In this document: positions 1,360 to 44,058 of the stretch, one piece after another
How the letters are laid out: every line of letters begins with the position of its first letter
Numbering within the stretch: the stretch's first letter is position 1
From: a virus
Lineage: Duplodnaviria > Heunggongvirae > Uroviricota > Caudoviricetes
Reading direction: 5' to 3' (one strand)
Length of the DNA: 61,136 nucleotides
IMG/VR virus record: IMGVR_UViG_3300048813_000140
Location: 114,702 to 175,837 of that record
Notes under the pieces: model-generated
What the model was told of the DNA's origin: nothing
Seen by the model: only the letters and a program-made list of their open reading frames with translations
Database searches by the model: none
Program-made: the position numbers and the translations under genes

Positions 1360-1660
1360 AGAAATCATAGAAAGAATCGCTAAAAATCTTAGAGAGCAGG
1401 GTTATGAAGAAAACCCAATACACGAAAGAGTCGATTCTGGACTGGGCGATTATGATTCATTCTTCCAGATAATGGTTGACTCAAGGTTAGAGGGCGTAGA
1501 ACTTTCTGCAGAAGAAATCTGGGAAAACATGAAGAAGCAGATCAACCATCTTCGAAAAATCATCCAAGATGCAGAGCGTGATTACGGTAGATTGACAACG
1601 AAGTACAGAACTGCTCAAGAAAACTACGAGGCCCTACAAAGGGCTACAGGTAATGACTAG
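1346..1660 (+). CDS. hypothetical protein, C-terminal coiled coil
   Basis: 104 aa ORF coupled to previous gene. Confidence 0.6.
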   Translation: MDRTKEIIERIAKNLREQGYEENPIHERVDSGLGDYDSFFQIMVDSRLEGVELSAEEIWENMKKQINHLRKIIQDAERDYGRLTTKYRTAQENYEALQRATGND

Positions 1661-2184
1661 GAAACTACCAAAAGAAACGTATTAACGCCTTCTAATCCAC
1701 TCATAAACTTGGCAAACGTAGGCTTGCTAGTAGTAACCATTTCTACCCCTTGATATAATTCTTCGGATTGTCCCAATAATATGCAGCCCTCTGAATCACG
1801 ATTCCAGTTGCCCCAATGAAATAACAAGTCTTTATGCCCTGCGACACCAGTTACCTCAAAAGTCGTAAAATCTTCAGTCATGTTGTGCAATCTGTGAGGC
1901 CCTCTAACGCACACAAACGTGCCATTTGGAATCTTGGGAAGGTTATCGTAGGAATGTTCTAGGGTGTGAGCTATAACATTACCATTTTGGTCTTTGAGTA
2001 CGCTAAAGATGCCATCAGGACGAAAATGAACGCGAGTCAGTGAGTATGTCAATTTGCTTTTATCTTGCGATGCGTCAATAGGTTTCGTAGGCTGTTCTGG
2101 AGTCAATTCTATTTGTGCAGATTTTCCAGCCAAAAGTGCGATAATGGTAGGTAAATATTTCTTAAAGAGTTCGCCAAAGTTCAT
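1657..2184 (-). CDS. DUF5675-family protein (putative cell-wall peptidase/endolysin)
   Basis: TLE..IPNGTF..LLFHWGNWNRDSEGCILLG pattern (HxGN..D..GCIL); AAGGAG RBS; hydrophobic N-terminus. Confidence 0.7.
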   Translation of the reverse strand: MNFGELFKKYLPTIIALLAGKSAQIELTPEQPTKPIDASQDKSKLTYSLTRVHFRPDGIFSVLKDQNGNVIAHTLEHSYDNLPKIPNGTFVCVRGPHRLHNMTEDFTTFEVTGVAGHKDLLFHWGNWNRDSEGCILLGQSEELYQGVEMVTTSKPTFAKFMSGLEGVNTFLLVVS

Positions 2185-2194
2185 AAAATTCTCC

Positions 2195-2222
2195 TTGCTT
2201 TATAGTAAGATTGTGATATACT
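2195..2222 (+). promoter_or_regulatory. sigma70-type promoter
   Basis: TTGCTT-16 nt-TATACT with TG extension; ATG 8 nt downstream. Confidence 0.5.
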
Positions 2223-2230
2223 ATTCATAG

Positions 2231-2551
2231 ATGAAGATTTTGCTAGACTTTCAATGGACCCTAAAAATAGTAGACTGGAATCTAGATATACTAGAATTTC
2301 CTCATACAGTTTCATTAAAAGGTGTTAATTATCAATGGGTTATGTACGATTACACCAATATTGAAGCATATGAATATTCATTGTCTTTTGCAAAAATTAC
2401 AGACAATCAACTACCGCACGACGGTTTTGGTAACGTATTTCACGTACCTTCAATAGAAGGAATGTTTGGTAAGGATGAAGAGTGTGATTGTGGTGCCAAA
2501 ATTGCCAATACTACGCATGCATTTTGGTGCAAGAAAGGTAACGGACCATGA
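2231..2551 (+). CDS. hypothetical protein with C-terminal Zn-ribbon-like CxC..H..C
   Basis: ECDCGA..HAFWCK. Confidence 0.6.
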   Translation: MKILLDFQWTLKIVDWNLDILEFPHTVSLKGVNYQWVMYDYTNIEAYEYSLSFAKITDNQLPHDGFGNVFHVPSIEGMFGKDEECDCGAKIANTTHAFWCKKGNGP

Positions 2552-2802
2552 AATTCAAGTACGGAGATAAGGTGAGATTGCTGAATAATGATTTTTTCTC
2601 TGATACCACATTCACCGTCGTATCTTACGTTTACACATATTCTAACCTAGATTCTAAAACACTTAACAGTACCGGAGAAACACAATACGGTTTAATCGAC
2701 GACACTCTACAAAGACCGTTGGATTATATAAAAGAGAGTGAAATGGAAAAAGTATCGCGCAAGCCCCGAACCACTCATTGGCGTAGAGGACCATTCCCAT
2801 GA
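2548..2802 (+). CDS. hypothetical protein (SH3/KOW-like start MKFKYGDKVR)
   Basis: ATGA overlap; typical small phage protein N-terminus. Confidence 0.6.
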   Translation: MKFKYGDKVRLLNNDFFSDTTFTVVSYVYTYSNLDSKTLNSTGETQYGLIDDTLQRPLDYIKESEMEKVSRKPRTTHWRRGPFP

Positions 2803-2987
2803 AAATCTACTTAGGATACAAGGCCTTCCCTTTCATGGGAGGTTGGCAAGCGGTAAAGGCTTTCAAGACAGAGGAACAGGCTAAAGAATGGTCTTCTGAG
2901 GAAAATTCAAAAGTATTTCAAGAATTCGATGATTGTGGCCTAATAGAAGGTGAAGAATTTAACTACATGGAATTGGAGCTAGAATGA
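2799..2987 (+). CDS. hypothetical protein
   Basis: 62 aa, ATGA-coupled on both sides. Confidence 0.6.
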   Translation: MKIYLGYKAFPFMGGWQAVKAFKTEEQAKEWSSEENSKVFQEFDDCGLIEGEEFNYMELELE

Positions 2988-4120
2988 GTCTACCGAAACT
3001 TTTTAAAAAGACCTCCACAGGTGCAATTCAGTATTGGTCTGTTTCTGTTATAGAGAATTCAGATCACTCAACCGGATATGATCTATGGACTTTCTATGGT
3101 CAAGTTGGCGGTAAAGAACAGCAGACTGTAGATTCCATCTTTGAAGGTAAAAACGTCGGCAAAAAGAATGAGACTACGCCGCAGCAGCAAGCTGAATCTG
3201 AGGCGCAGGCTAAATGGGAAAAACAATTAAAACGTGGATATGTTCAGTCTCTAGGCGATGCCAGAGCCGACAAGCTAGATGAAATTATCGAGGGTGGTAT
3301 CGTTCCTATGCTTGCCTTCACTTTTGAGAAGCAGGGTAAAAAGATCAAGTACCCATGTTTTGTTCAGCCTAAGCTAGACGGAATTAGATGTATTGCCATT
3401 CTTAAAGACGGAAAATGTACTCTTTGGTCAAGAACCAGGAAACTCGTCACTTCATGTCCACATATTGTCGCTGAAATTGAGAGAATTTTTAGGGATGATA
3501 TCATACTGGATGGTGAACTCTATAATCATGAATTAAAACAAGATTTTGAGAAGATAGTTTCCATGGTTCGCCAAGAAGAACCTGCAGATGGACATGAGAG
3601 AGTGCAATATCACATTTACGATACGGTAAACAAGAATCCATTTTACAAAAGAACAAATTTACTCTATAAAGCTTTCAATGTAGGTTCTCCAAGTTTTAAA
3701 TATCTAAAATTAGTTGAGACCTTTGACGTAGAGAAAGAGGAAGATATTGCAGTTTGGTTTGCAGGATTTACCGATAAAGGATATGAAGGAGCAATACTCC
3801 GTAATTATGAAGGTCTTTATGTAAATAAACGATCTGCAGATCTCATTAAAGTTAAGGAAATGCAGGACGACGAGTTTCGTATTATTGGAGTAGAACAAGG
3901 TCGAGGCAAATTAACTGGACACGTAGGGGCCTTTGTCTGCCTAACAAGTAATGATCAGGAGTTTAAGGCCAAAATGTCAGGGTCTACAGAAAAATTGAAG
4001 GAATACTGGGAAAATATGGATTTATGGAGAGGCAAATTCTTAACTGTACAGTTTCAAGATTTTACCTCATATGGAATTCCACGTTTTCCGGTTGGTCTTA
4101 GAATAAGAGAAGATGTTTAA
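2984..4120 (+). CDS. lig: ATP-dependent DNA ligase with N-terminal WGR-like domain
   Basis: motif I QPKLDGIRC, ILDGELY, YHIYD, EGAILR, DLIKVK, C-terminal OB fold ending PRFPVGLRIR. Confidence 0.93.
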   Translation: MSLPKLFKKTSTGAIQYWSVSVIENSDHSTGYDLWTFYGQVGGKEQQTVDSIFEGKNVGKKNETTPQQQAESEAQAKWEKQLKRGYVQSLGDARADKLDEIIEGGIVPMLAFTFEKQGKKIKYPCFVQPKLDGIRCIAILKDGKCTLWSRTRKLVTSCPHIVAEIERIFRDDIILDGELYNHELKQDFEKIVSMVRQEEPADGHERVQYHIYDTVNKNPFYKRTNLLYKAFNVGSPSFKYLKLVETFDVEKEEDIAVWFAGFTDKGYEGAILRNYEGLYVNKRSADLIKVKEMQDDEFRIIGVEQGRGKLTGHVGAFVCLTSNDQEFKAKMSGSTEKLKEYWENMDLWRGKFLTVQFQDFTSYGIPRFPVGLRIREDV

Positions 4121-4132
4121 CAAGGAGACAAT

Positions 4133-4540
4133 ATGTCAGATGCGATCAAGTATTTACATTTCAACAACACCTACATCAAGAAGGAAGACAGTAAGAAGTT
4201 CAGGCGCAAATACGCCAGTAGAACAGTGGCTGCTAAGGCTGCGCCCGCTGCCGACATTCTAGCTTTGGCTCATAATTACGCTGGATCTACGCAGGAATTC
4301 GTTTATGGCCTTCTGGTAGGTGTTACGGTTCTTTCTATAGATGATGTATATGACAGAAAACTTGGAAGACAGTTTGCCACAGAGAAAATGACATCAGTTG
4401 AACTTACTATAAATTCTATCGTAACCAACAAAACGCACATATTCGTACATTTTAAGACCTATAAAGGTGTAGATTTATCGCTTAGATTGAACAAAAATAC
4501 AGGGTTTTCGACAGTTGTCGGAAACTTCATGGGAGATTAG
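4133..4540 (+). CDS. hypothetical protein
   Basis: AAGGAG RBS, 135 aa. Confidence 0.7.
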   Translation: MSDAIKYLHFNNTYIKKEDSKKFRRKYASRTVAAKAAPAADILALAHNYAGSTQEFVYGLLVGVTVLSIDDVYDRKLGRQFATEKMTSVELTINSIVTNKTHIFVHFKTYKGVDLSLRLNKNTGFSTVVGNFMGD

Positions 4541-4670
4541 GCGTGAGCTAACGCTCTAGAGTAAGTCGGACAAGTAGCCACAAAGACTGTACGCGAACGG
4601 GAAACAAAAAGAACTGGCGAATCTAGAATAGCCAAGAAAGCCAATATCAAACAGTGACTCGGTGGTACGC

Positions 4671-4979
4671 CTAATCTTTTAACCAATCAGGAAGTTCTGG
4701 GAGTGGGACAGATTGTCCCTTCAAGGCGTGAGTACAATCGTCTAAGAACTGCAAAACACCGTTCTTTAAAAATGAATGGCAGATAGTTTTACCAGATTCA
4801 TCTTGTCCAGTAGACAAGATACTGGGGCTAATTGTTGGAGAATTATAATTTCCATCGAAAGACCAGGACCCGTTACCGGTGATCGTAATAGTATGAGGAT
4901 TTTCGCATCCAGGACAATAAAATACTAGAGCGTCTTTTTCATAATATTTGCAGGTCCTGAATTTTCCTCTTTGACCCAC
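4671..4979 (-). CDS. DUF6527-like small Cys/His protein
   Basis: FYCPGCENPH..WSFDGNYNSPTISPSIL..CHSFLKNGVLQFLDDCTH. Confidence 0.65.
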   Translation of the reverse strand: MGQRGKFRTCKYYEKDALVFYCPGCENPHTITITGNGSWSFDGNYNSPTISPSILSTGQDESGKTICHSFLKNGVLQFLDDCTHALKGQSVPLPELPDWLKD

Positions 4980-5746
4980 TATACCGCTCTTTGAACAGAA
5001 TATAGATCGTAATCTTGAGAATGATAGTCTAGTTTTCCAGATTTGTCGAATGTAAATCCACGACTAAGATATGTAAGGGTACATCTACAATGGGGATGAA
5101 GTCCAAAAGCAGAAGGCTGTGTCTCGCCACGCTTATGGTAGCCCTGCTTAAGTTCGGAAAATTTATAAAGCCTAGGCGTAATACCGTCAGGCATCATGTG
5201 GAGTTTGAGGCATTCTTTGCAGGTACTAGCATCTTTTACCATTATGAAGAACACGGTAGGATCACTATCATTGACATTTGCCGCACTACGAGTGATATCC
5301 ATCATTGAGCCAAGATTTCTTAGTTTGGTAGCTTCAGATTCAATCACAGTTTTTAAGTGTGTGCTAGCCTTACCCATCTCTTCTTGAATGGCGTTTTCAA
5401 GGAATTGTGAATCTACCGGTTCATTCCTGATCCTGGCTTCCTTCACGATACCGTCAACTAATTCTGTGACATTAGATCTGGTCTTACTTTTCAATGATTC
5501 GATATAGCCGTCAGCGCTTACTAATAAGCTCCTTAAAACATCCTGCTCCAAAGCATTTGGCATCTTGTTTTGCATGGCTTGAACGAATAGATTGGAAAGG
5601 CCGAAGTTTTCTTGGGAGCTAAATACGGCTAACTTTTTATTCTGATACTTTGGAAGATTTCCGATGAATTGCAAGGCTATACGATCAAAGATGTCATCTA
5701 TGATCTTACCTATGCTATCTTTACCATTTCCAGAGATGCCAAACAT
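4979..5746 (-). CDS. phage head morphogenesis / minor capsid protein (Mu gpF/SPP1 gp7-like)
   Basis: C-terminal TCKEC...LHPHCRCTL motif; downstream of portal. Confidence 0.75.
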   Translation of the reverse strand: MFGISGNGKDSIGKIIDDIFDRIALQFIGNLPKYQNKKLAVFSSQENFGLSNLFVQAMQNKMPNALEQDVLRSLLVSADGYIESLKSKTRSNVTELVDGIVKEARIRNEPVDSQFLENAIQEEMGKASTHLKTVIESEATKLRNLGSMMDITRSAANVNDSDPTVFFIMVKDASTCKECLKLHMMPDGITPRLYKFSELKQGYHKRGETQPSAFGLHPHCRCTLTYLSRGFTFDKSGKLDYHSQDYDLYSVQRAV

Positions 5747-5751
5747 GTGAC

Positions 5752-6063
5752 CTACTTAAAGTTTGTTAATATAAACGGCTCTTTAGAGGCAATAACGTCG
5801 CCGGTTAGGGTTCCGGTAAATGGAACTTGACCACATTTCTTACAAGGTGGATGACCATCACCTACGAAGTTGTCGTAGTCGTGCTGACATTGAGTGTTTG
5901 GTACGGTAAAGGTTAAAGGAGACAGAATGGCAGGATACTGTTGATATGGATTAAGAACTTTGTACTTTTCAACATCGCCGATCCGCGTAAGAAGTTTTAC
6001 CTTGAGTTCTTCAGATAGGGGTTCTGTCAGTAATAATTGTACTAAAAATTCAATTTCTGTCAT
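5752..6063 (-). CDS. hypothetical protein with Zn-ribbon (CQH..CKKCG)
   Basis: 103 aa in head operon, tight spacing. Confidence 0.6.
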   Translation of the reverse strand: MTEIEFLVQLLLTEPLSEELKVKLLTRIGDVEKYKVLNPYQQYPAILSPLTFTVPNTQCQHDYDNFVGDGHPPCKKCGQVPFTGTLTGDVIASKEPFILTNFK

Positions 6064-6065
6064 AA

Positions 6066-6731
6066 TTACTTCTTGGTAATGCCTTCTTTATTTAGCGTAG
6101 CCATGATATCTTTGCTGACTTGCTTTTCTTCTTGTTCCCACTTCTTCATTACGTCTGCCACGATCTTGTGCTGTAGAGTAACTGCAGTTTTGGCATTTGA
6201 AGACATGTTGTGATTGGCTTGATTTCCAATATTAAACTGGGGTTTATGGAGAGCCTTAGCGATTCCTTTAATGGCTTCTGCAGATTTTTTGAGTTCGATT
6301 TCTTGTTTCAGATCTTTTACGTATTTTTGCAGTTCTTCTGGATCAAGCTCTGATTTACTCAACATGTTCTCTAAAGTAGAAATATGTTGATCCAGTTCGG
6401 TTCCATCTGGATGTTCAGATTCTGCCATAGGCTGTGCTTCCACTTGAGGATTGGCAGGTTGTCCAGGAGCTGCTCCGCCAGGCATTGGAGCACTATGATC
6501 ATCTCCAGGTTGACTAGCACCACTCTCTTGGCTAGGATCTCCGCCAGGTTGTCCTGGCTGTCCAGGTTGTTGAGCTGAAGCTTCTTGCTCTTGAGCCTTT
6601 TGTTGGGTAGCTTGTTGAGTAGCCTGTTTAGAGCCTTCTCCGAAGCCTAATCGAAAAGCCAAGTCAACTGACTTTTTGAAGTTCAGTTTTAGCTCTTGAT
6701 ATTTCATCTTATAATTTACGTCGCCGCTCAT
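6066..6731 (-). CDS. hypothetical protein with Q/P/G low-complexity linker (possible scaffold-like)
   Basis: 221 aa directly after portal; helical ends and a disordered middle. Confidence 0.6.
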   Translation of the reverse strand: MSGDVNYKMKYQELKLNFKKSVDLAFRLGFGEGSKQATQQATQQKAQEQEASAQQPGQPGQPGGDPSQESGASQPGDDHSAPMPGGAAPGQPANPQVEAQPMAESEHPDGTELDQHISTLENMLSKSELDPEELQKYVKDLKQEIELKKSAEAIKGIAKALHKPQFNIGNQANHNMSSNAKTAVTLQHKIVADVMKKWEQEEKQVSKDIMATLNKEGITKK

Positions 6732-6732
6732 A

Positions 6733-8583
6733 TTAATCCTCTTCCAACATGTCTTCTATGTCCATCATCAAGAATTGCATCGCGTAGGGCTTGGGAGCCA
6801 ACAAAGCAAAAACTGCCTCTGGACTAGTTTGGGCCAATAACTGAAGGTATTGAATCCAAAATGGATCTCGTTTGTATTGTAATAATGGATCAGAAAAAGC
6901 CGTTACATCATTGAAGAACGTAGACTTGATTTCACCAACATCGTTATATTTATCTAAAAGTAATTGGAAACGTTCGTTGAACGGCATATTGCCGCCCATT
7001 ATACCCAATACTGAATCTTTATCAACTTCCTGCATTACGTCGTTGTAAGACATGGAAACAACCATATCTTGTTGTAGGCGGGTAGTTTCCTGCTCTTTGC
7101 TTTGGCTGTCTAATCCGGCAAGTTTGATCTCACAGACTTTAGCTAGCAAAGGATCTATCAGTGGTAATAGTCTTTGATTGAAGAATGTAGCAAATTTCAA
7201 GACTAAAGGTCGTAGGCCTGTATCGCGAGCTGCGGTAAGTTTGAATTCGTTATTGGATTCAGATAAAGTTTGAGAATTCGTACCTTTGCTCAAATGTCCA
7301 TAACCAGGCAATTCATCAGGGCTCACACCGAAAGCTGACAAGATGTTCCTGGCAATTTGATCATACATAAATTGAAATTCATCGCCTAATCCTTCACCGG
7401 TCATAGGCAACCACGTAACATCATCTTCTGACCCTATACCGAATATCGGGGTCCTGAAGGAGTTACTAACGCTGTTGATAGAAGCGTTAAACTGCAATTT
7501 CATGTTATCTAAGGCTTGTTGGTCAACTTCGTCCGATTTGATGACAAGCATGCCTTTTGTCGCTCTACCGTTTTGGAAATAGAGCTTCTTATAAGCGTCA
7601 ATGCTAATGTGGGTAGTAACGCTAGAAACAACAGTGTCCAAAGGAGAAATAGGATACCCATTATGCTCCACATCAGAAGAAGGGAACAAAGTATATACGA
7701 GCATCTCATCATGCGTGAAAGCTTGTCTTGGAGTACCGTCAATGATTTGAAGCCATGCATATTGGTCTTCTTGTAGTGCTTTAATGTCGATGTTGATTTT
7801 TTCGCCAGTCAAGCTCTCTAAAGCCCTAATAGCTGTAGCACGAAGATTATTTCCTACGTATTCGCCTTTTCTGACTGCCCTAACGATTGTAGCAACGTCT
7901 ACAGGTCTAAATCTATGAAAAGGATAATTACCGTCTTGATCTGGCTCAGCACTTCTATCATAGATGATCTCAGTAGCGAACCTACCAAATGTAAGACCGT
8001 TCCTACACTGAATGTCCATGTACTCAGCTAATGTGAGTTTTTCTTGATTTTCGAGTTCGTCAGTATGTCCGCAGTTAAGGATGATCTTCTCTGCTCTCTT
8101 AATTCTCTCTTTAACTTTATCGAACTGCTCTGGGGTCAAGATCTTATAGAATTCTGGTTTAATTTCAAACTCAATACCGATATCAAATCTATCAGCGCGT
8201 AAATGTCCAAACAGCGACATCATATTGCCACGGGCACGCAAGATGGCAGCTACTAGATGGTCAGTGATCCTGATCTGTTTGAGCACTTCATCAGGTAATG
8301 CTCTGCGTTTGGTTTTATATAAACCAAGGAAATTGTCGGTAGGGGCCGGATTCTCAGTAAACGCTAAAGCTGGAGCCTTTTTACTATTTGCACTTCCACT
8401 AGCCTGATGAATAGCGTACAACAATGGATCGTTTTCAGATTTTGAAAAACCTGCACTATCCATAGTTTCAGCAGCATCTTGGCTTAAAGCAAATACCATC
8501 TTATTCTTGACAGAATTATTGATAGTCTGCGCAGCTAGGACGGCTTCTTGGGCTTTCTGTTCAGCAGATTTTTGATCACTCAT
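6733..8583 (-). CDS. phage portal protein
   Basis: 616 aa; FRPVDVATI, GYPISPLD, YFQNGRATKGML, ILSAFGVSPDELP match HK97/T4-like portal patterns; between TerL and head morphogenesis gene. Confidence 0.85.
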   Translation of the reverse strand: MSDQKSAEQKAQEAVLAAQTINNSVKNKMVFALSQDAAETMDSAGFSKSENDPLLYAIHQASGSANSKKAPALAFTENPAPTDNFLGLYKTKRRALPDEVLKQIRITDHLVAAILRARGNMMSLFGHLRADRFDIGIEFEIKPEFYKILTPEQFDKVKERIKRAEKIILNCGHTDELENQEKLTLAEYMDIQCRNGLTFGRFATEIIYDRSAEPDQDGNYPFHRFRPVDVATIVRAVRKGEYVGNNLRATAIRALESLTGEKINIDIKALQEDQYAWLQIIDGTPRQAFTHDEMLVYTLFPSSDVEHNGYPISPLDTVVSSVTTHISIDAYKKLYFQNGRATKGMLVIKSDEVDQQALDNMKLQFNASINSVSNSFRTPIFGIGSEDDVTWLPMTGEGLGDEFQFMYDQIARNILSAFGVSPDELPGYGHLSKGTNSQTLSESNNEFKLTAARDTGLRPLVLKFATFFNQRLLPLIDPLLAKVCEIKLAGLDSQSKEQETTRLQQDMVVSMSYNDVMQEVDKDSVLGIMGGNMPFNERFQLLLDKYNDVGEIKSTFFNDVTAFSDPLLQYKRDPFWIQYLQLLAQTSPEAVFALLAPKPYAMQFLMMDIEDMLEED

Positions 8584-14773: not shown

Positions 14774-15049
14774 AGGCGTATTTCGCTAGCCGAACCATCG
14801 TAACGTCCCTGGAATCGAACCAAGCCACTACAGCTAGTACGCCTATATCAGTAATAACGAGCCCTGCTAGTCCACGCCTGCTAGCCTAATGACGTTAGCA
14901 CCTCTGTACAAAGGTAGTCAACCTAGACTCGTTAAAATAAGGGCTTTTGGCCCAGATCTATCGACTTCTCGCGAAATCAATAGAGATACGGATGGCCTTT
15001 GGCGCATTTAGACACATTACCCGTCTGGCGGGATTTATTGTCCGCACTC
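14774..15049 (-). ncRNA. candidate structured RNA 2 with tRNA-like acceptor/T-arm module (unassigned)
   Basis: on the minus strand: 12-bp hairpin with GCGA tetraloop (14957-14984); T-arm CTTGG-TTCGATT-CCAGG (14808-14824); perfect 7-bp pairs TAACGTC/GACGTTA, TAACGAG/CTCGTTA and AGGCGTA/TACGCCT; G-U wobbles favour the minus strand. Confidence 0.65.
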
Positions 15050-35790: not shown

Positions 35791-36838
35791 GTGTTATTGC
35801 GGAAGATATATAGCTATAAGGGTTCTTAAAAAACACTTAGAATCCAATATTGTGGACCATGATCGATCCTTTGTAGATTGGTGTACACACATAATAAATC
35901 TTATGAGAGTTAATAGATGGGCATGGGAAAAATCTAAAGGGGTAAATGCTATCAGCGATAGATTTTGGGGTTTTAGAGTACTGTCTAAAGAATGTTTAAT
36001 AGAGGATTTCGCATTTGAATCGCCAAGACCTAAAGGCGTTGCCCCAAAACCTCAATATGATAAAATGTCTAAAAATAGACTTGGTGACGGAAATCCTGCA
36101 TTCAAAAATATAGAAATCTACGATATGGAAGAATTGAAAATATTTGCACAACACGAATTCCAAAAATTAGGAAACAATGAGAGACGATTTCGTTTGTTAG
36201 AAAACATACTAAGAGAAAAATTTCCAGATTTTAGATATAATTTCTATGGAAAATTTAGAGAAAACGACGAAACAAGAGGACACAATTCTAGAAATAAAAT
36301 TTTGGCATTTTTATTAGACAAAGACATTTTTTGGATCGTGGATGCTAAAGCCAAGGATCGCGGCAAATTAATAAAAGTAGGTCAAGACAAATCTCCCAAA
36401 AAGCATTTAATTCTAAACGCTGGGAAAAATGTATTAAAAGGACATACCAGCTTGCCACATAAAATATTGTACAATATGGTTAAGTTCTTAGATCCTATGG
36501 CGAAAATAGAAAAACAAATAGATTATAGAGATACATGGAAAAGTTACGATATTTACAGTCCAGAAAAGAATATTTTAATTGAAATGCATGGCCATATGTG
36601 GCACGACACAAATAAATGTAAGAAAAACCTCATACCGTTAGTTTTTAAAAACGTAAAGAATGACGAAATAAAGAAAGAGTTAGCTCTTTTAAATAGTTTT
36701 AGGTACGAAGTATTCTGGGATGATCAAACCGATATGTGGGAAAATAAATTAGAGGAAATATATGGAAGAAAATCAAAAACCTATGAAGAAGCTTTTTGTG
36801 AAGAGAATAATAAAAAAAGAACAAAAAAGGGTATATGA
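35771..36838 (+). mobile_element. Vsr-like/DUF559 (EDxHD-type) free-standing homing endonuclease
   Basis: YDIYSPEKNILIEMHGHMWHD..DEIKKELA..FRYEVFWD; sits between the dnaE halves; more AT-rich than dnaE. Confidence 0.8.
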
Positions 36839-40692: not shown

Positions 40693-41232
40693 GTGAGCGA
40701 TCAAGACGCCACTGCTCAGTCTGATAATCATAAGCTGGTCCTTACCTCGTTTGGTAAGGTTCCAGCCCTTTCTTTAGACATGAGTAAGATTCGAGAAGCT
40801 GAAAGTAGGATAATTGAGGCCAAAATGGTCAATCCTGCTACTTATGCAGACCTTGAGTCGGCATTTAATGAAGCGTACCGCGACCTTAAAAGGCACTTAA
40901 GTTCTATAGGATTTGCCCTTAACCAGGCAGAGAAGACTTTAGAAGAAACCAAATCAGATATTATTTTAGATAGATATCCTAAATTTTTAGAAGAAAAAGC
41001 TATCAAGAAGACCCAAGACAATGCGGACCTCCGCAAGGCCTTTATGGCTAGAGATCCTGAGTATTCGGCAGCCCTAGACAGACTGAATCAGCTTAAGGCC
41101 TTAGAGTCCAACTTTGATGGCAAGATAAAAGTACTAGAGAACACCTGTAGATACATGCGTAAGAAAATGGACTTACTACTGAGAAGCGGTATGTCTGGAG
41201 CTGACTATCACGTAACGTCGGGGAGAAAGTAA
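40693..41232 (+). CDS. helical protein, possible UvsY-like recombination mediator
   Basis: coiled-coil content; position between SSB and RecA. Confidence 0.4.
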   Translation: MSDQDATAQSDNHKLVLTSFGKVPALSLDMSKIREAESRIIEAKMVNPATYADLESAFNEAYRDLKRHLSSIGFALNQAEKTLEETKSDIILDRYPKFLEEKAIKKTQDNADLRKAFMARDPEYSAALDRLNQLKALESNFDGKIKVLENTCRYMRKKMDLLLRSGMSGADYHVTSGRK

Positions 41233-41618
41233 TGGCCAATAAAGAGATATTTTACAAAGGTCAGATGTTTACCGTAGCTATCGTAGACGATGAAGACCAA
41301 GATATTTTGAATAAGTCATGGTTCATAAACACAAGAACCAAACGAATGCCATCTGAATACTTCCAGTTAAGACGCAATCTAGGGATTCTAGAGAAGGCAC
41401 ATTACGGCAAAGCAAAGATCTATATGCATCATGAGATATGGATCAAACATTTTGGCTTCTTTGCGGAAGGTATGACGGTAGACCACATAGATTTCGATAC
41501 CGCAAATAATAAAAAAAGTAATTTAAGACTTATGACCAACGAAGAAAATCGCGTTAGACATCAAAAACAAGGAGAAGAAAATGCCCAACAAGTGGACCAA
41601 ACAGCTACGGGGATATGA
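41232..41618 (+). mobile_element. HNH homing endonuclease
   Basis: AIVDDED..IYMHHEI..VDHIDFDTANNKKSNLR. Confidence 0.8.
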
Positions 41619-42684
41619 TGACGCCGTAGATTACGACTACGATTCATTCGCACCCGAAAATTGCCTGTATTCCCCAAGTCCCTATTTCAACTGGATTTTT
41701 GCCAACAAATCTCATGGTATCCCTACGAACTCTGGACTCTTATTGTTCTCAGAAATGAAGGCTGGAAAGTCTTTATGGATCTATGCTCTAATTCTAGAGA
41801 TGCAACGAAGAGACAGAATGCTTCTAGAGTCTGGCGCAAAGAAGAAAGATGGATCTAAGTTTACTGAAGACGACTTGCGCCATGCAGTTATTGCCAACAC
41901 AGAACTTCGCGGACAACTCCAACATGATGTATTTCCAGAACTTAACAAAGACCTCATGACCATTTGGGACACAAAAGATCCAGTAGAAATTTTCGACCGA
42001 ACAGAAGATGATATCAAACCCCTAGTTCAAGATGGAATGCCTCTTGGTATTTTCAGTATAGACTCAATCACCAAAATCATGGGCACCAAGCGTGCTAACG
42101 CCAAATCCGTATCTGATCATCTTATCGGCGATAGAGCCTTAACCGTACAGAATGGCATGGATAAGTTAGTTCCATTCCTCAAACGCAACAAGACTCTTCT
42201 GATTGGTACAAGCCAAATGCGAAGCAATGTGGGCGGCAGCAAATACGAATCAGACTCGAAGATGGCAGAGTCTTGGGATGTAAAGCATGCTTTTGAATAC
42301 TTTGTATCATTCAAACGGGCTGGGTCCGCAGAAGACAAGAAAGATATCGAAGAGAAAACCTTTGAGGAAGACGTAAAAGATGCTCGCGACAATAAGCTTC
42401 AAACGGGACACAAAGTCTTCGTCAAGATGGAAGGATCGTCTTTGGGTCCTCAGGGCCGCGCTGGAGTATTCACCTTAGACTACGAAAAAGGCCTTATAAA
42501 TCAACATGAAGAGATCTTTTTCTTAGGAAAAAACGCTGGTATTATCAAAACTGAAAGCAACAATCGCGTCTTCGTTTTTGGTGATCAGAAGTTTGTAGGC
42601 AAAAAAGAATGCGCCTTCGCGATCAGGGATAACCCAAAAATGGCAAAAGCGATCTTGGAACAGTTAAGGAAATTAGACGAATAA
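41581..42684 (+). CDS. recA: RecA/UvsX-like recombinase
   Basis: SEMKAGKS Walker A variant, NTE, SIDSI, TSQMR, C-terminal GII..F.FG pattern. Confidence 0.85.
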   Translation: MPNKWTKQLRGYDDAVDYDYDSFAPENCLYSPSPYFNWIFANKSHGIPTNSGLLLFSEMKAGKSLWIYALILEMQRRDRMLLESGAKKKDGSKFTEDDLRHAVIANTELRGQLQHDVFPELNKDLMTIWDTKDPVEIFDRTEDDIKPLVQDGMPLGIFSIDSITKIMGTKRANAKSVSDHLIGDRALTVQNGMDKLVPFLKRNKTLLIGTSQMRSNVGGSKYESDSKMAESWDVKHAFEYFVSFKRAGSAEDKKDIEEKTFEEDVKDARDNKLQTGHKVFVKMEGSSLGPQGRAGVFTLDYEKGLINQHEEIFFLGKNAGIIKTESNNRVFVFGDQKFVGKKECAFAIRDNPKMAKAILEQLRKLDE

Positions 42685-42686
42685 TT

Positions 42687-43107
42687 ATACGGAAACGGAT
42701 ACCTCTGCTAGGTAATGTTATAAAGAAGGCTTCTAGAGCCCCATCCTAAACCGTATTTAAGTTTGAGTGGCTTTAAACGAGGTATGAGAACCAGAGATGG
42801 AACTGGGCGCGCTTAATGGTAAGACCAAAAGTCTAGAGTAGTAGCAGAAACAAACACTTGAGGGGTCACGAAACCCGCCCCAGCCCACTCTTTAGTTTGG
42901 TGGTTTTTGACGCAAAATTAAATTGATCGACGAATCCCCTGCGCTGGGGTGACGGGCTCGAAAGAGTAAAGACGTATCTAGATTGAGCCATCATTTGATG
43001 TGTGTCCCTAACGGTTGACGGGAGGCCAAAATCCCACCTAAGTAAAGTAGCCGCATGCAGCGCTTGAAAATGGGTCGGTCGACAACGGGAGTTACTGTTA
43101 GGGACAC
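42687..43107 (+). ncRNA. candidate large structured RNA 3 (unassigned)
   Basis: 438-nt intergenic gap; ATACGG/CCGTAT, GGCT/AGCC, ATACCTC/GAGGTAT, CCCCAGC/GCTGGGG, CTC-GAAA-GAG and a 14-bp GTGTCCCTAACGGT/ACTGTTAGGGACAC helix. Confidence 0.7.
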
Positions 43108-43122
43108 TTTAATAAGGAAAAT

Positions 43123-44058
43123 ATGAGAGAATTAGTTGAGAGACCAGCAGCCGACGCACGAAAAATCAACCACAAAGATAACTTCGAACTATGCTACCTT
43201 AGACATAAATACTTCAGAAAAATCAACTACAATCCAACCCCAGAAGAAATGCGTCCATATACCCGAATAGTGGAATATGTATCTCGCAACACCTTCTATA
43301 CCTACAAGAACCTGTTCATAACCGTAGGAATGGATCTGGAAGATATAGTAAGCACCAGTCGAGTGCAACTTGTAAATTACCTTGGCCTTTTTGAAATCAG
43401 CAAAGAAAAGACACCTGAAAAGTACGAAACATTCTGCATTGCACACAAAAAAGAATACAAGAAAGATCCCGACGACTACCAACTCCTAGGTAAAAACAGA
43501 GCAAATTTTACAATGTTCATGAAACAGCGCATGGAAGATCTCGTGCGTATCTGCAATCAAAAAGCCAAAAATATCAAGGGATTCAGAGTAGAAGAGTACG
43601 CGGCATTCTACGGCCCCAAACCTCCTCCTGAAGACCTACACAAAGTCATAGAAGACCACAAACAGTGTGGTTTTAAGACTTTATCTACCGTTGCCTTTAA
43701 GGCCATCAAGAAAAGAATGAAAGCTAACATAAATGAACCATTCCAGTTCGCTGGCATGTGGTATGTGGCTATTACTCTAGAATCTAGAAATCTTACAATA
43801 CTCGACTTCGAAGGTGCCGGATTGAGTCCCTACGATAACTTCCACAATATGGACCCTGAAAAAATCCTATCTACTATGCAGGAAGAAATAAAGTTTGACA
43901 AAAAGAGAAAAGTGTTCGATAATTACTCTAAGGAAAATAAGGCCAAAGTGATATATGAATTCATCGAGAAGAACAGAGATAATCCTCAATTCGAAGAAGA
44001 GTTAGACATCGCCAGAGGAATGCTAGAAAATATGGGAATCGTACATGGCAACAGATAA
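43123..44058 (+). CDS. hypothetical protein, possible divergent sigma factor (region 2-like)
   Basis: YTRIVEYVSR..GMDLEDIVSTSRVQLVNYLGLF..NFTMFMKQRMEDLVR loosely follows sigma region 2.1-2.4. Confidence 0.45.
   Translation: MRELVERPAADARKINHKDNFELCYLRHKYFRKINYNPTPEEMRPYTRIVEYVSRNTFYTYKNLFITVGMDLEDIVSTSRVQLVNYLGLFEISKEKTPEKYETFCIAHKKEYKKDPDDYQLLGKNRANFTMFMKQRMEDLVRICNQKAKNIKGFRVEEYAAFYGPKPPPEDLHKVIEDHKQCGFKTLSTVAFKAIKKRMKANINEPFQFAGMWYVAITLESRNLTILDFEGAGLSPYDNFHNMDPEKILSTMQEEIKFDKKRKVFDNYSKENKAKVIYEFIEKNRDNPQFEEELDIARGMLENMGIVHGNR

Follow-up and report, generated by a model that had tools for sequence, protein, structure and literature searches.

In an uncultured soil phage of 176 kb, the gap between a UvsX/RecA-like recombinase gene and a sigma-like gene is, as we read it with moderate confidence, this phage's version of a hypervariable RNA slot, which lies on the same strand as the sigma-like gene and directly 5′ of it and is filled by a mosaic of small RNA modules. 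The mosaic would comprise a 106-nt three-way-junction RNA (the 3′ module), a module of ~100 nt (the middle module) and about 210 nt at the 5′ end of the gap. This reading is built on homology, covariation, modular occurrence and the absence of known families, all of which were observed directly; the 3′ module is very probably a genuine selected RNA fold. The window, i.e., the whole stretch of DNA that was analysed (61,136 nt), is the terminal 61 kb of a 175,837-nt virus record. The phage group that carries the slot is uncultured, with genomes of ~170 kb, and is known from environmental metagenomes only.

The features of the locus are collected in Table 1. Relatives of the recombinase carry the JGI name RecA/RadA recombinase. 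An HNH endonuclease gene of 128 aa (PF13392, E 8e-12; window 41232-41618) shares 38 nt with the start of the recombinase ORF; the ORFs immediately 5′ of the recombinase in relatives (about 64-123 aa) had no recorded Pfam family where they were looked up. The gap itself contains no + strand ORF of at least 40 aa. We rejected its interpretation as a decayed gene: its nine stop-to-stop frames matched no Pfam family (E up to 1), their only two PHROG matches are noise (E 0.24-0.32), and tblastx and tblastn searches against the endonuclease and the 345-aa ORF that occupy the slot in relatives were empty. Scanning the gap for consensus sigma-70 promoters and terminators gave no site, and blastn of 2 kb against phage GenBank matched nothing. 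A previous interpretation of this DNA, made from the letters alone (the sequence-only reading), had called the gap the largest of a tightly packed block, which holds provided that 36164-36761 counts as coding and fails otherwise. Its remark that the gap is richer in G/C runs than its flanks agrees with a G+C of 0.46 (0.46-0.49) against 0.414 for the genome, most other gaps of which are AT-rich (0.28-0.40).

The gene downstream of the gap encodes a 311-aa protein with no Pfam or PHROG family and with 219 homologues, none of which is named. In its AlphaFold model (pLDDT 78.6), residues 35-153 align with the N-terminal domain of SigE (8b3z_A) at a VIA-align Z of 7.0, which is middling for helical bundles, with an rmsd of 3.1 over 78 residues, and many sigma domain 2 chains are among the top VIA-align rows for these residues. 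Foldseek searches of the protein against PDB and BFVD gave no matches at E ≤0.001. On the strength of this modelled resemblance, we consider the designation sigma-like plausible. In relatives, the motif AAGGAA..ATG likewise follows the slot RNA.

Table 1. Features of the junction between the recombinase gene and the sigma-like gene (positions in the window)
Feature	Position	Strand	Remarks
UvsX/RecA-like recombinase gene	41581-42684	+	phrog_97 UvsX-like recombinase, E 5.5e-11; upstream flank of the gap
Intergenic RNA slot, whole	42685-43122	+	438 nt, G+C 0.46; between the recombinase stop (42684) and ATG 43123
5′ hairpin domain	42687-42757	+	ATACGG/CCGTAT closing pair; unsupported (z -1.26, 11% of shuffles equally stable)
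Segment possibly closed by GAGTGGCT/AGCCCACTC	42761-42894	+	unsupported (z -0.90)
Middle module	42894-42994	+	TGGTGG/CCATCA closing pair, CCCC/GGGG hairpin, CTC-GAAA-GAG hairpin; one homologue (L047); own z -0.10
3′ module, three-way-junction RNA	43002-43107	+	z -2.55 and -2.86; homologues in L145 and L148
P1 of 3′ module	43002-15/43094-107	+	14-bp closing helix
P2 hairpin of 3′ module	43020-23/43032-35	+	loop GGCCAAAA
P3 of 3′ module	43036-39/43072-75	+	tip variable; joining strands conserved
Candidate pseudoknot of 3′ module	43024-27 with 43077-80	+	loop GRCC against conserved GGUC; G.U to A-U change
Shine-Dalgarno AAGGA and ATG of the 311-aa gene	43114-43125	+	read from the sequence; begins 7 nt past P1 of the 3′ module
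311-aa gene, sigma-like	43123-44058	+	helical N-terminal domain similar to sigma domain 2; downstream flank of the gap; the slot travels with the gene

About 100 loci, designated here by L numbers, were fetched via the two flanking proteins from IMG/VR, JGI metagenomes and Logan/ENA assemblies. The synteny check proposed for the ORF at 43123 showed that the order recombinase, gap, 311-aa gene, ~180-aa gene and DnaB-like helicase gene is kept and that the length of the gap is not, the junction measuring from 5 to 1405 nt across about 60 related phage loci. The slot usually holds at least one small RNA just 5′ of the sigma-like gene (in most relatives, 90-220 nt each), and these RNAs stay with the sigma-like gene also at loci without an adjacent recombinase. 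The non-coding slots of the relatives are G+C-rich (0.48-0.62). Judged by the sigma-like gene, the relative nearest to the window is L014 (80% aa), whose gap of 140 nt has at most faint similarity to that of the window; therefore, much of the window's sequence is dispensable. The slot of L001 and L002 is taken by a minus-strand gene for a 205-aa GIY-YIG-like endonuclease, and that of L006 by an extra 345-aa ORF together with 365 non-coding nt. In L001 (2453-3070, minus strand; L002 is alike), the free-standing GIY-YIG-like homing endonuclease gene leaves 56 AT-rich nt before the sigma-like gene.

The commonest occupant of the slot is an RNA of 130-220 nt that we call class A. Its P1 is a 7-bp acceptor-like helix, typically TTGGCGG...CCGCCAA, its P2 has an internal loop, GUGGAAAG/CUGGAGACACGC, that is conserved and a tip that varies, and a 5-bp hairpin with the loop AGU[A/C]GCGN abuts the 3′ strand of P1. 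In locus after locus, covariation is seen in both P1 and the stem of the hairpin. Our covariance model of this class, R1, identified 42 copies, 25 of them distinct and all 42 on the + strand; in the loci fetched by the 311-aa gene, these copies lie just 5′ of its homologue, and the window gap occupies the equivalent place on the same strand. In the class A alignment, 96.4% of the cells pair and 17 of 18 pairs are changed on both sides, which was attained by none of 500 shuffles (slid controls, 27-40%); this alignment was fitted to R1, which favours pairing, and an alignment made with MAFFT only gives a like pattern. Examples are found in L068 (160-310), L029 (2199-2405), L094 (568-744) and L056 (1339-1518), and tandem pairs in L025/L061 and L054. 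With its 7+5 bp, class A has the geometry of the acceptor and T-arm stack of a tRNA, to which L029 adds a tip resembling a T-arm and a D-arm. Additionally, the slot of L066 scores as a tRNA (35.9 bits) and that of L073 as tRNA-like (30.3 bits). In L066, the 90-nt RNA that scores as a tRNA (1332-1421) carries a 26-nt insertion at the single D-loop position of the model. No Rfam family matches the class A RNAs, which form a new RNA family more clearly than anything in the window. A variant, class B, starts with ATAG..GTCGGTAGC and ends with ..GCGTAGCGAAC..; it is found in L143, L144/L042 and L145.

Membership of the window gap in class A or class B was considered and rejected. The class A hairpin and the GUGGAAAG/CUGGAGACACGC internal loop are absent from the gap; a search of the window by R1 at default filters was empty, and the best R1 score in the gap region without filters was 1.7 bits; and a class A nhmmer profile matched nothing in the whole genome. 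Elsewhere in the window, a ~280-nt gap on the minus strand (14774-15049) contains a tRNA-like acceptor, TAACGTC/GACGTTA, beside a T-arm, CTTGG-TTCGATT-CCAGG, and received neither an ARAGORN call nor a class A model match; the sequence-only reading had listed it as RNA 2. In L142 (2501-2566), the database start of a 333-aa homologue, P0008, reads through a class-A-type hairpin (2530-2547), and the true start of this protein probably lies about 22 codons downstream.

Searches for known RNA families were empty for the gap. At gathering score, Rfam 15 gave no match in the whole window (GOLLD, ROOL, HEARO, tmRNA, RNase P, group I and II introns, riboswitches, ribozymes and YrlA included), and on 42500-43300, at E up to 10, it gave two chance lncRNA matches only. 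In the window and 24 related loci in all, the only Rfam matches were tRNA-like ones, in L066, L073 and L148. ARAGORN found no tRNA or tmRNA gene in the window and none in the relatives on which it was run. The sequence-only reading had seen no tmRNA, RNase P or intron consensus, in agreement with these Rfam 15 and ARAGORN results, and the Rfam comparison it called for matched no family.

The best evidence for an RNA in the window comes from the 3′ module. Its closing helix P1, already pointed out in the sequence-only reading, is real and consists of 13 Watson-Crick pairs and one G.U; as read from the sequence, it ends 7 nt 5′ of the ribosome-binding site, as had been stated. When the parts of the gap were folded one by one (the 5′ domain, the next 134 nt, the middle and 43002-43107; Table 1), the last gave a z of -2.86, and in a separate shuffle run (z -2.55) none of 200 shuffles was equally stable. 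The 11-bp perfect run of the 3′ domain is attained by 2% of shuffles. Two homologues were identified. Window positions 43004-43094 align to 1357-1447 of L145 (nhmmer, E 3e-5; homologue assigned to 1362-1454), the nearest relative by recombinase (83% aa), and L148 is homologous across the whole 3′ module (6209-6295, E 8.5e-9), the sequence TTGACGGGAGGCCAAAATCCCACCT being identical between the window and L148. A scan of IMG/VR with a 21-nt core pattern of the module gave one true match, which is L148, and the same pattern in 185,579 prokaryotic genomes gave chance sites only, two in bacterial MAGs. A covariance model built on the three copies, R2, found no fourth copy in 372 kb of related loci.

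In the alignment of the window, L145 and L148 (A10), hardly any change is seen in the junction strands and the P2 hairpin. Of all cells, 98.2% are paired and six of seven P1 pairs are changed on both sides (slid controls, 28-51%), figures that come with the thin statistics of a family of three (two for the middle module); the E-values of our covariance models are rough. The sequence of P1 differs in each copy, with the pairing kept in all three, and its G.U pairs fall on the + strand only. P3 keeps ACCU/RGGU, in which a U.G is changed to U-A, and is topped by a separate hairpin in each copy. Conservation of this core spans phages with only about 35-83% identity between their flanking proteins. 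The pseudoknot between 43024-27 and 43077-80, which would join the loop to a conserved strand, is offered as a suggestion only. With no Rfam match, a conserved core and a covarying closing helix, the proposal of an undescribed structured RNA stands for the 3′ domain; it does not stand for a single ornate RNA or RNP scaffold of ~420 nt.

The three copies of the 3′ module are found in different surroundings. The L145 copy is the tip of P2 in the class B RNA at the equivalent slot, about 110 nt or more from the gene, and L144 and L143 have unrelated P2 tips where L145 carries the module. L148 is a related phage that is syntenic with window 1650-8580, and its copy is a free-standing unit between two class-A-like RNAs (6088-6193 and 6300-6451). 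These RNAs belong to an array of ~680 nt of non-coding sequence, which opens with a tRNA (5779-5852, 36.6 bits) and faces minus-strand genes, there being no downstream gene on the strand of the 3′ module. The occurrence of the module in three settings, namely, alone by the ribosome-binding site in the window, within P2 of a larger RNA in L145 and as a free unit in L148, suits an autonomous RNA domain better than the leader of one gene. The order within the L148 array (5760-6451) is tRNA, an element with a 13-bp closing helix (about 5866-6000), a class-A-like RNA, the 3′-module homologue and a second class-A-like RNA. The position of the array corresponds to window ~4541-4982. The window stretch syntenic with it, 4539-4676, is a 138-nt gap with a G+C of 0.48, a 10-bp closing helix, GATTAGGCGT/ACGCCTAATC, and a z of -0.54, which is not unusual.

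The middle module is probably a real RNA as well. Window 42894-42994 matches positions 226-332 of L047 (nhmmer, E 7.4e-5; blastn, E 6.7e-5), in which the homologue is the sole occupant of a 144-nt slot. The alignment keeps the closing pair, the CCCC/GGGG-type hairpin and a third hairpin, and the GAAA hairpin of the window is replaced by a longer stem-loop in L047. Three of the 19 predicted pairs are changed on both sides between the window and L047, which, for two sequences, may be taken as suggestive of a fold. A crossing CCCCAGC/GCTGGGG helix, drawn in the sequence-only reading, is not retained in L047, the sole homologue of this segment, where the upstream arm is absent and a local hairpin alone is possible. 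Additional copies of the module were found neither in the related loci nor by pattern scans, in which GACGAAYCCCCTGCGC gave 40 chance matches, none of them extendable, and TTGACGCRAARTTAAAYTG gave no match. An RNA-like family that we call class C (..AGGCAGGATTAAAT..CGTCCAGCGGGTA..AACCCGGTAGCCAA..) was identified in L146 (1468-1584), L048 (61-184) and L011 (2051-2144); it occupies the slot in two of these relatives and, in a third, lies about 1.8 kb 5′ of the recombinase stop. Class C was considered as kin of the middle module and rejected, the likeness being superficial and the alignment unconvincing.

The first ~210 nt of the gap are without evidence of function. Homologues of the 5′ hairpin domain were found by nhmmer neither in the about 100 related loci nor in the genome, and the segment 42761-42894 has no homologue, its one weak match (E 0.02) lying inside a coding stretch of L090.

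We read the slot as RNA and not as a DNA-level element, such as a transposon end or an origin, because covarying closing helices surround conserved interiors, the G.U pairs fall on the + strand and the orientation to the downstream gene is constant. Across the slots, modules are exchanged, stacked (tandem class A) and nested (L145). In this genome, a class A RNA would have been lost or would never have been present. The modules of the window may be transcribed together with the sigma-like gene, would fold independently and could be cut out or retained as stable small RNAs. By analogy, the slot would, in our view, most likely work as an RNA-processing point, since the occupants found in relatives mimic the acceptor/T-arm stack; such a point would release stable small RNAs and set a defined 5′ end of the sigma-like mRNA. 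The modules of the window are without the acceptor/T-arm mimic that underlies this analogy. With its end 7 nt away from the ribosome-binding site, the 14-bp helix would leave a protective structured 5′ end on the sigma-like mRNA, and we tentatively raise the possibility that it might serve mainly as a 5′ structural cap, the mimic being missing here. More speculatively, the 3′ module could be a portable domain with a ligand- or protein-binding junction that, together with the tRNA-mimic RNAs and the sigma-like protein, would make up a transcription switch; we give this idea little credence. Such an RNA-protein switch would be a functional analogue of 6S RNA and the sigma70 holoenzyme.

Several other explanations of the gap were weighed. 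The slot might once have held canonical small RNAs, of which rearrangements would have left drifting, non-functional fragments. In favour of this are the lack of class A in the window and anywhere else in the genome, a 5′ half that shows neither homologues nor unusual stability, the 140 nt that suffice in L014, and a junction that is a hot spot, as indicated by the endonuclease gene of L001/L002, the 345-aa ORF of L006 and the range of 5 to 1405 nt. Nevertheless, we consider decay unlikely: three phages that are strongly diverged elsewhere share an identical or nearly identical core of the 3′ module, the compensatory helix substitutions of the module need selection on the fold, and the G+C of the gap stays over the genome mean. 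Decay is a better explanation for the 210 nt at the 5′ end than for the 200 nt at the 3′ end.

It is quite improbable, in our estimate, that the gap is a cis-regulatory leader of the sigma-like gene, in which the 3′ module would bind a ligand or the gene product and control access to the ribosome-binding site. In L148, the array that contains the module faces genes of the minus strand, and no gene follows the module on its own strand; in L145, another RNA encloses the module, at about 110 nt or more from the gene; and no riboswitch family was matched. What speaks for a leader is the aptamer-like pattern of conserved joining strands and variable peripheral stems, the 7 nt that separate P1 from the ribosome-binding site and the association of slot RNAs with the sigma-like gene where no recombinase is adjacent. 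Additionally, 43037-48 is pairable with 43106-17 (10 of 12 positions), overlapping the ribosome-binding site, although a pairing of this kind is within chance at such length.

The proposal of the sequence-only reading, one ornate RNA of ~420 nt that would represent a new GOLLD/ROOL-like class, now appears very unlikely. The gap is a contiguous, ORF-free and G+C-rich block, its minimum-energy fold pairs distant segments, and all of the short helices that had been named are found in the sequence. However, the end-to-end pairing and helix richness do not go beyond chance: the folding energy of the whole gap is -120 kcal/mol against -118.8 ± 6.1 in dinucleotide shuffles (z -0.20, with an equal z for the minus strand), and it contains five perfect helices of at least 7 bp against 4.15 ± 2.1 in 500 dinucleotide shuffles. 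No Rfam family matched, and the long-range helices between the parts are not conserved. The closest relatives have much shorter junctions, of 140 nt (L014) and about 240 nt (L145), with only parts of the window sequence in common, and the two supported parts sit separately in other genomes, the 5′ half being without homologues or unusual stability.

A DNA-level element, be it a replication origin, which the sequence-only reading had named as an alternative, a recombination hot spot or a small inverted-repeat mobile element, would suit a highly variable junction that is located between the genes for a recombinase and a DnaB-like helicase, receives a homing endonuclease gene in some relatives and has modules bounded by inverted repeats, but it is extremely unlikely given that the gap is G+C-rich and has no iterons, tandem repeats or AT-rich unwinding block, only two-copy repeats of 9-11 nt, that the bounding inverted repeats vary around a conserved interior, a pattern expected of RNA helices and contrary to that of transposon ends, that the G.U pairs are on the + strand only and that all family members lie on the strand of the downstream gene.

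The RNA slot bears comparison with several described systems. The closest are RNAC and RNAD, small RNAs of unknown role from the tRNA region of T4 (PMC3014915). The L148 copy of the 3′ module is similarly placed, in an array with a tRNA and two tRNA-mimic RNAs; in contrast, the window has no tRNA gene and its module precedes a protein gene; the likeness drawn here is one of genomic setting. The YrlA-type Y RNAs are tRNA-mimicking RNAs of bacteria and phages bound by Ro60/Rsr, and in M. smegmatis YrlA a 7-bp acceptor-like stem permits cleavage by RNase P (PMC4201824). These RNAs likewise combine a long stem with a tRNA-like domain, and the class A RNAs of the relatives share the 7-bp acceptor-like geometry. 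However, the 175,837-nt genome gave no match to TROVE (Ro60) or RtcB in searches whose positive controls responded, Rfam YrlA was not matched, and the modules of the window have no T-arm or acceptor mimic. GOLLD and ROOL are large ornate RNAs associated with phages and prophages (PMC12286853). The gap resembles them as a phage-associated non-coding RNA region of unknown function that is G+C-rich against its surroundings, but their covariance models do not match, and the gap holds separable modules of ~100 nt and not one large fold. Finally, a 2023 catalogue derived from IMG/VR lists 10,006 candidate RNAs without names, among them tRNA-like and gene-upstream classes (PMC10690425). It resembles our data in its covarying motifs from uncultured phage contigs, some of them directly 5′ of genes. 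None of its candidates is in Rfam 15, and class A, or the modules of the window, may already be within this catalogue.

To our knowledge, phage small RNAs are almost uncharacterised, and we know of no role for T4 RNAC and RNAD. For the window, the claim shrinks from an ornate RNA of 420 nt to a well-supported RNA of 106 nt, a probable RNA of 100 nt and 210 nt that are unsupported. The locus belongs to widespread large soil and peat phages in which small structured RNAs get swapped, stacked and nested. It has yielded a strongly covarying tRNA-mimic family that is not in Rfam and tracks a sigma-like gene, and a compact three-way-junction module that behaves like a portable RNA domain. It thereby offers material for two questions, namely, how phages use tRNA mimicry and RNA processing in the organisation of their transcripts and how RNA domains are exchanged.
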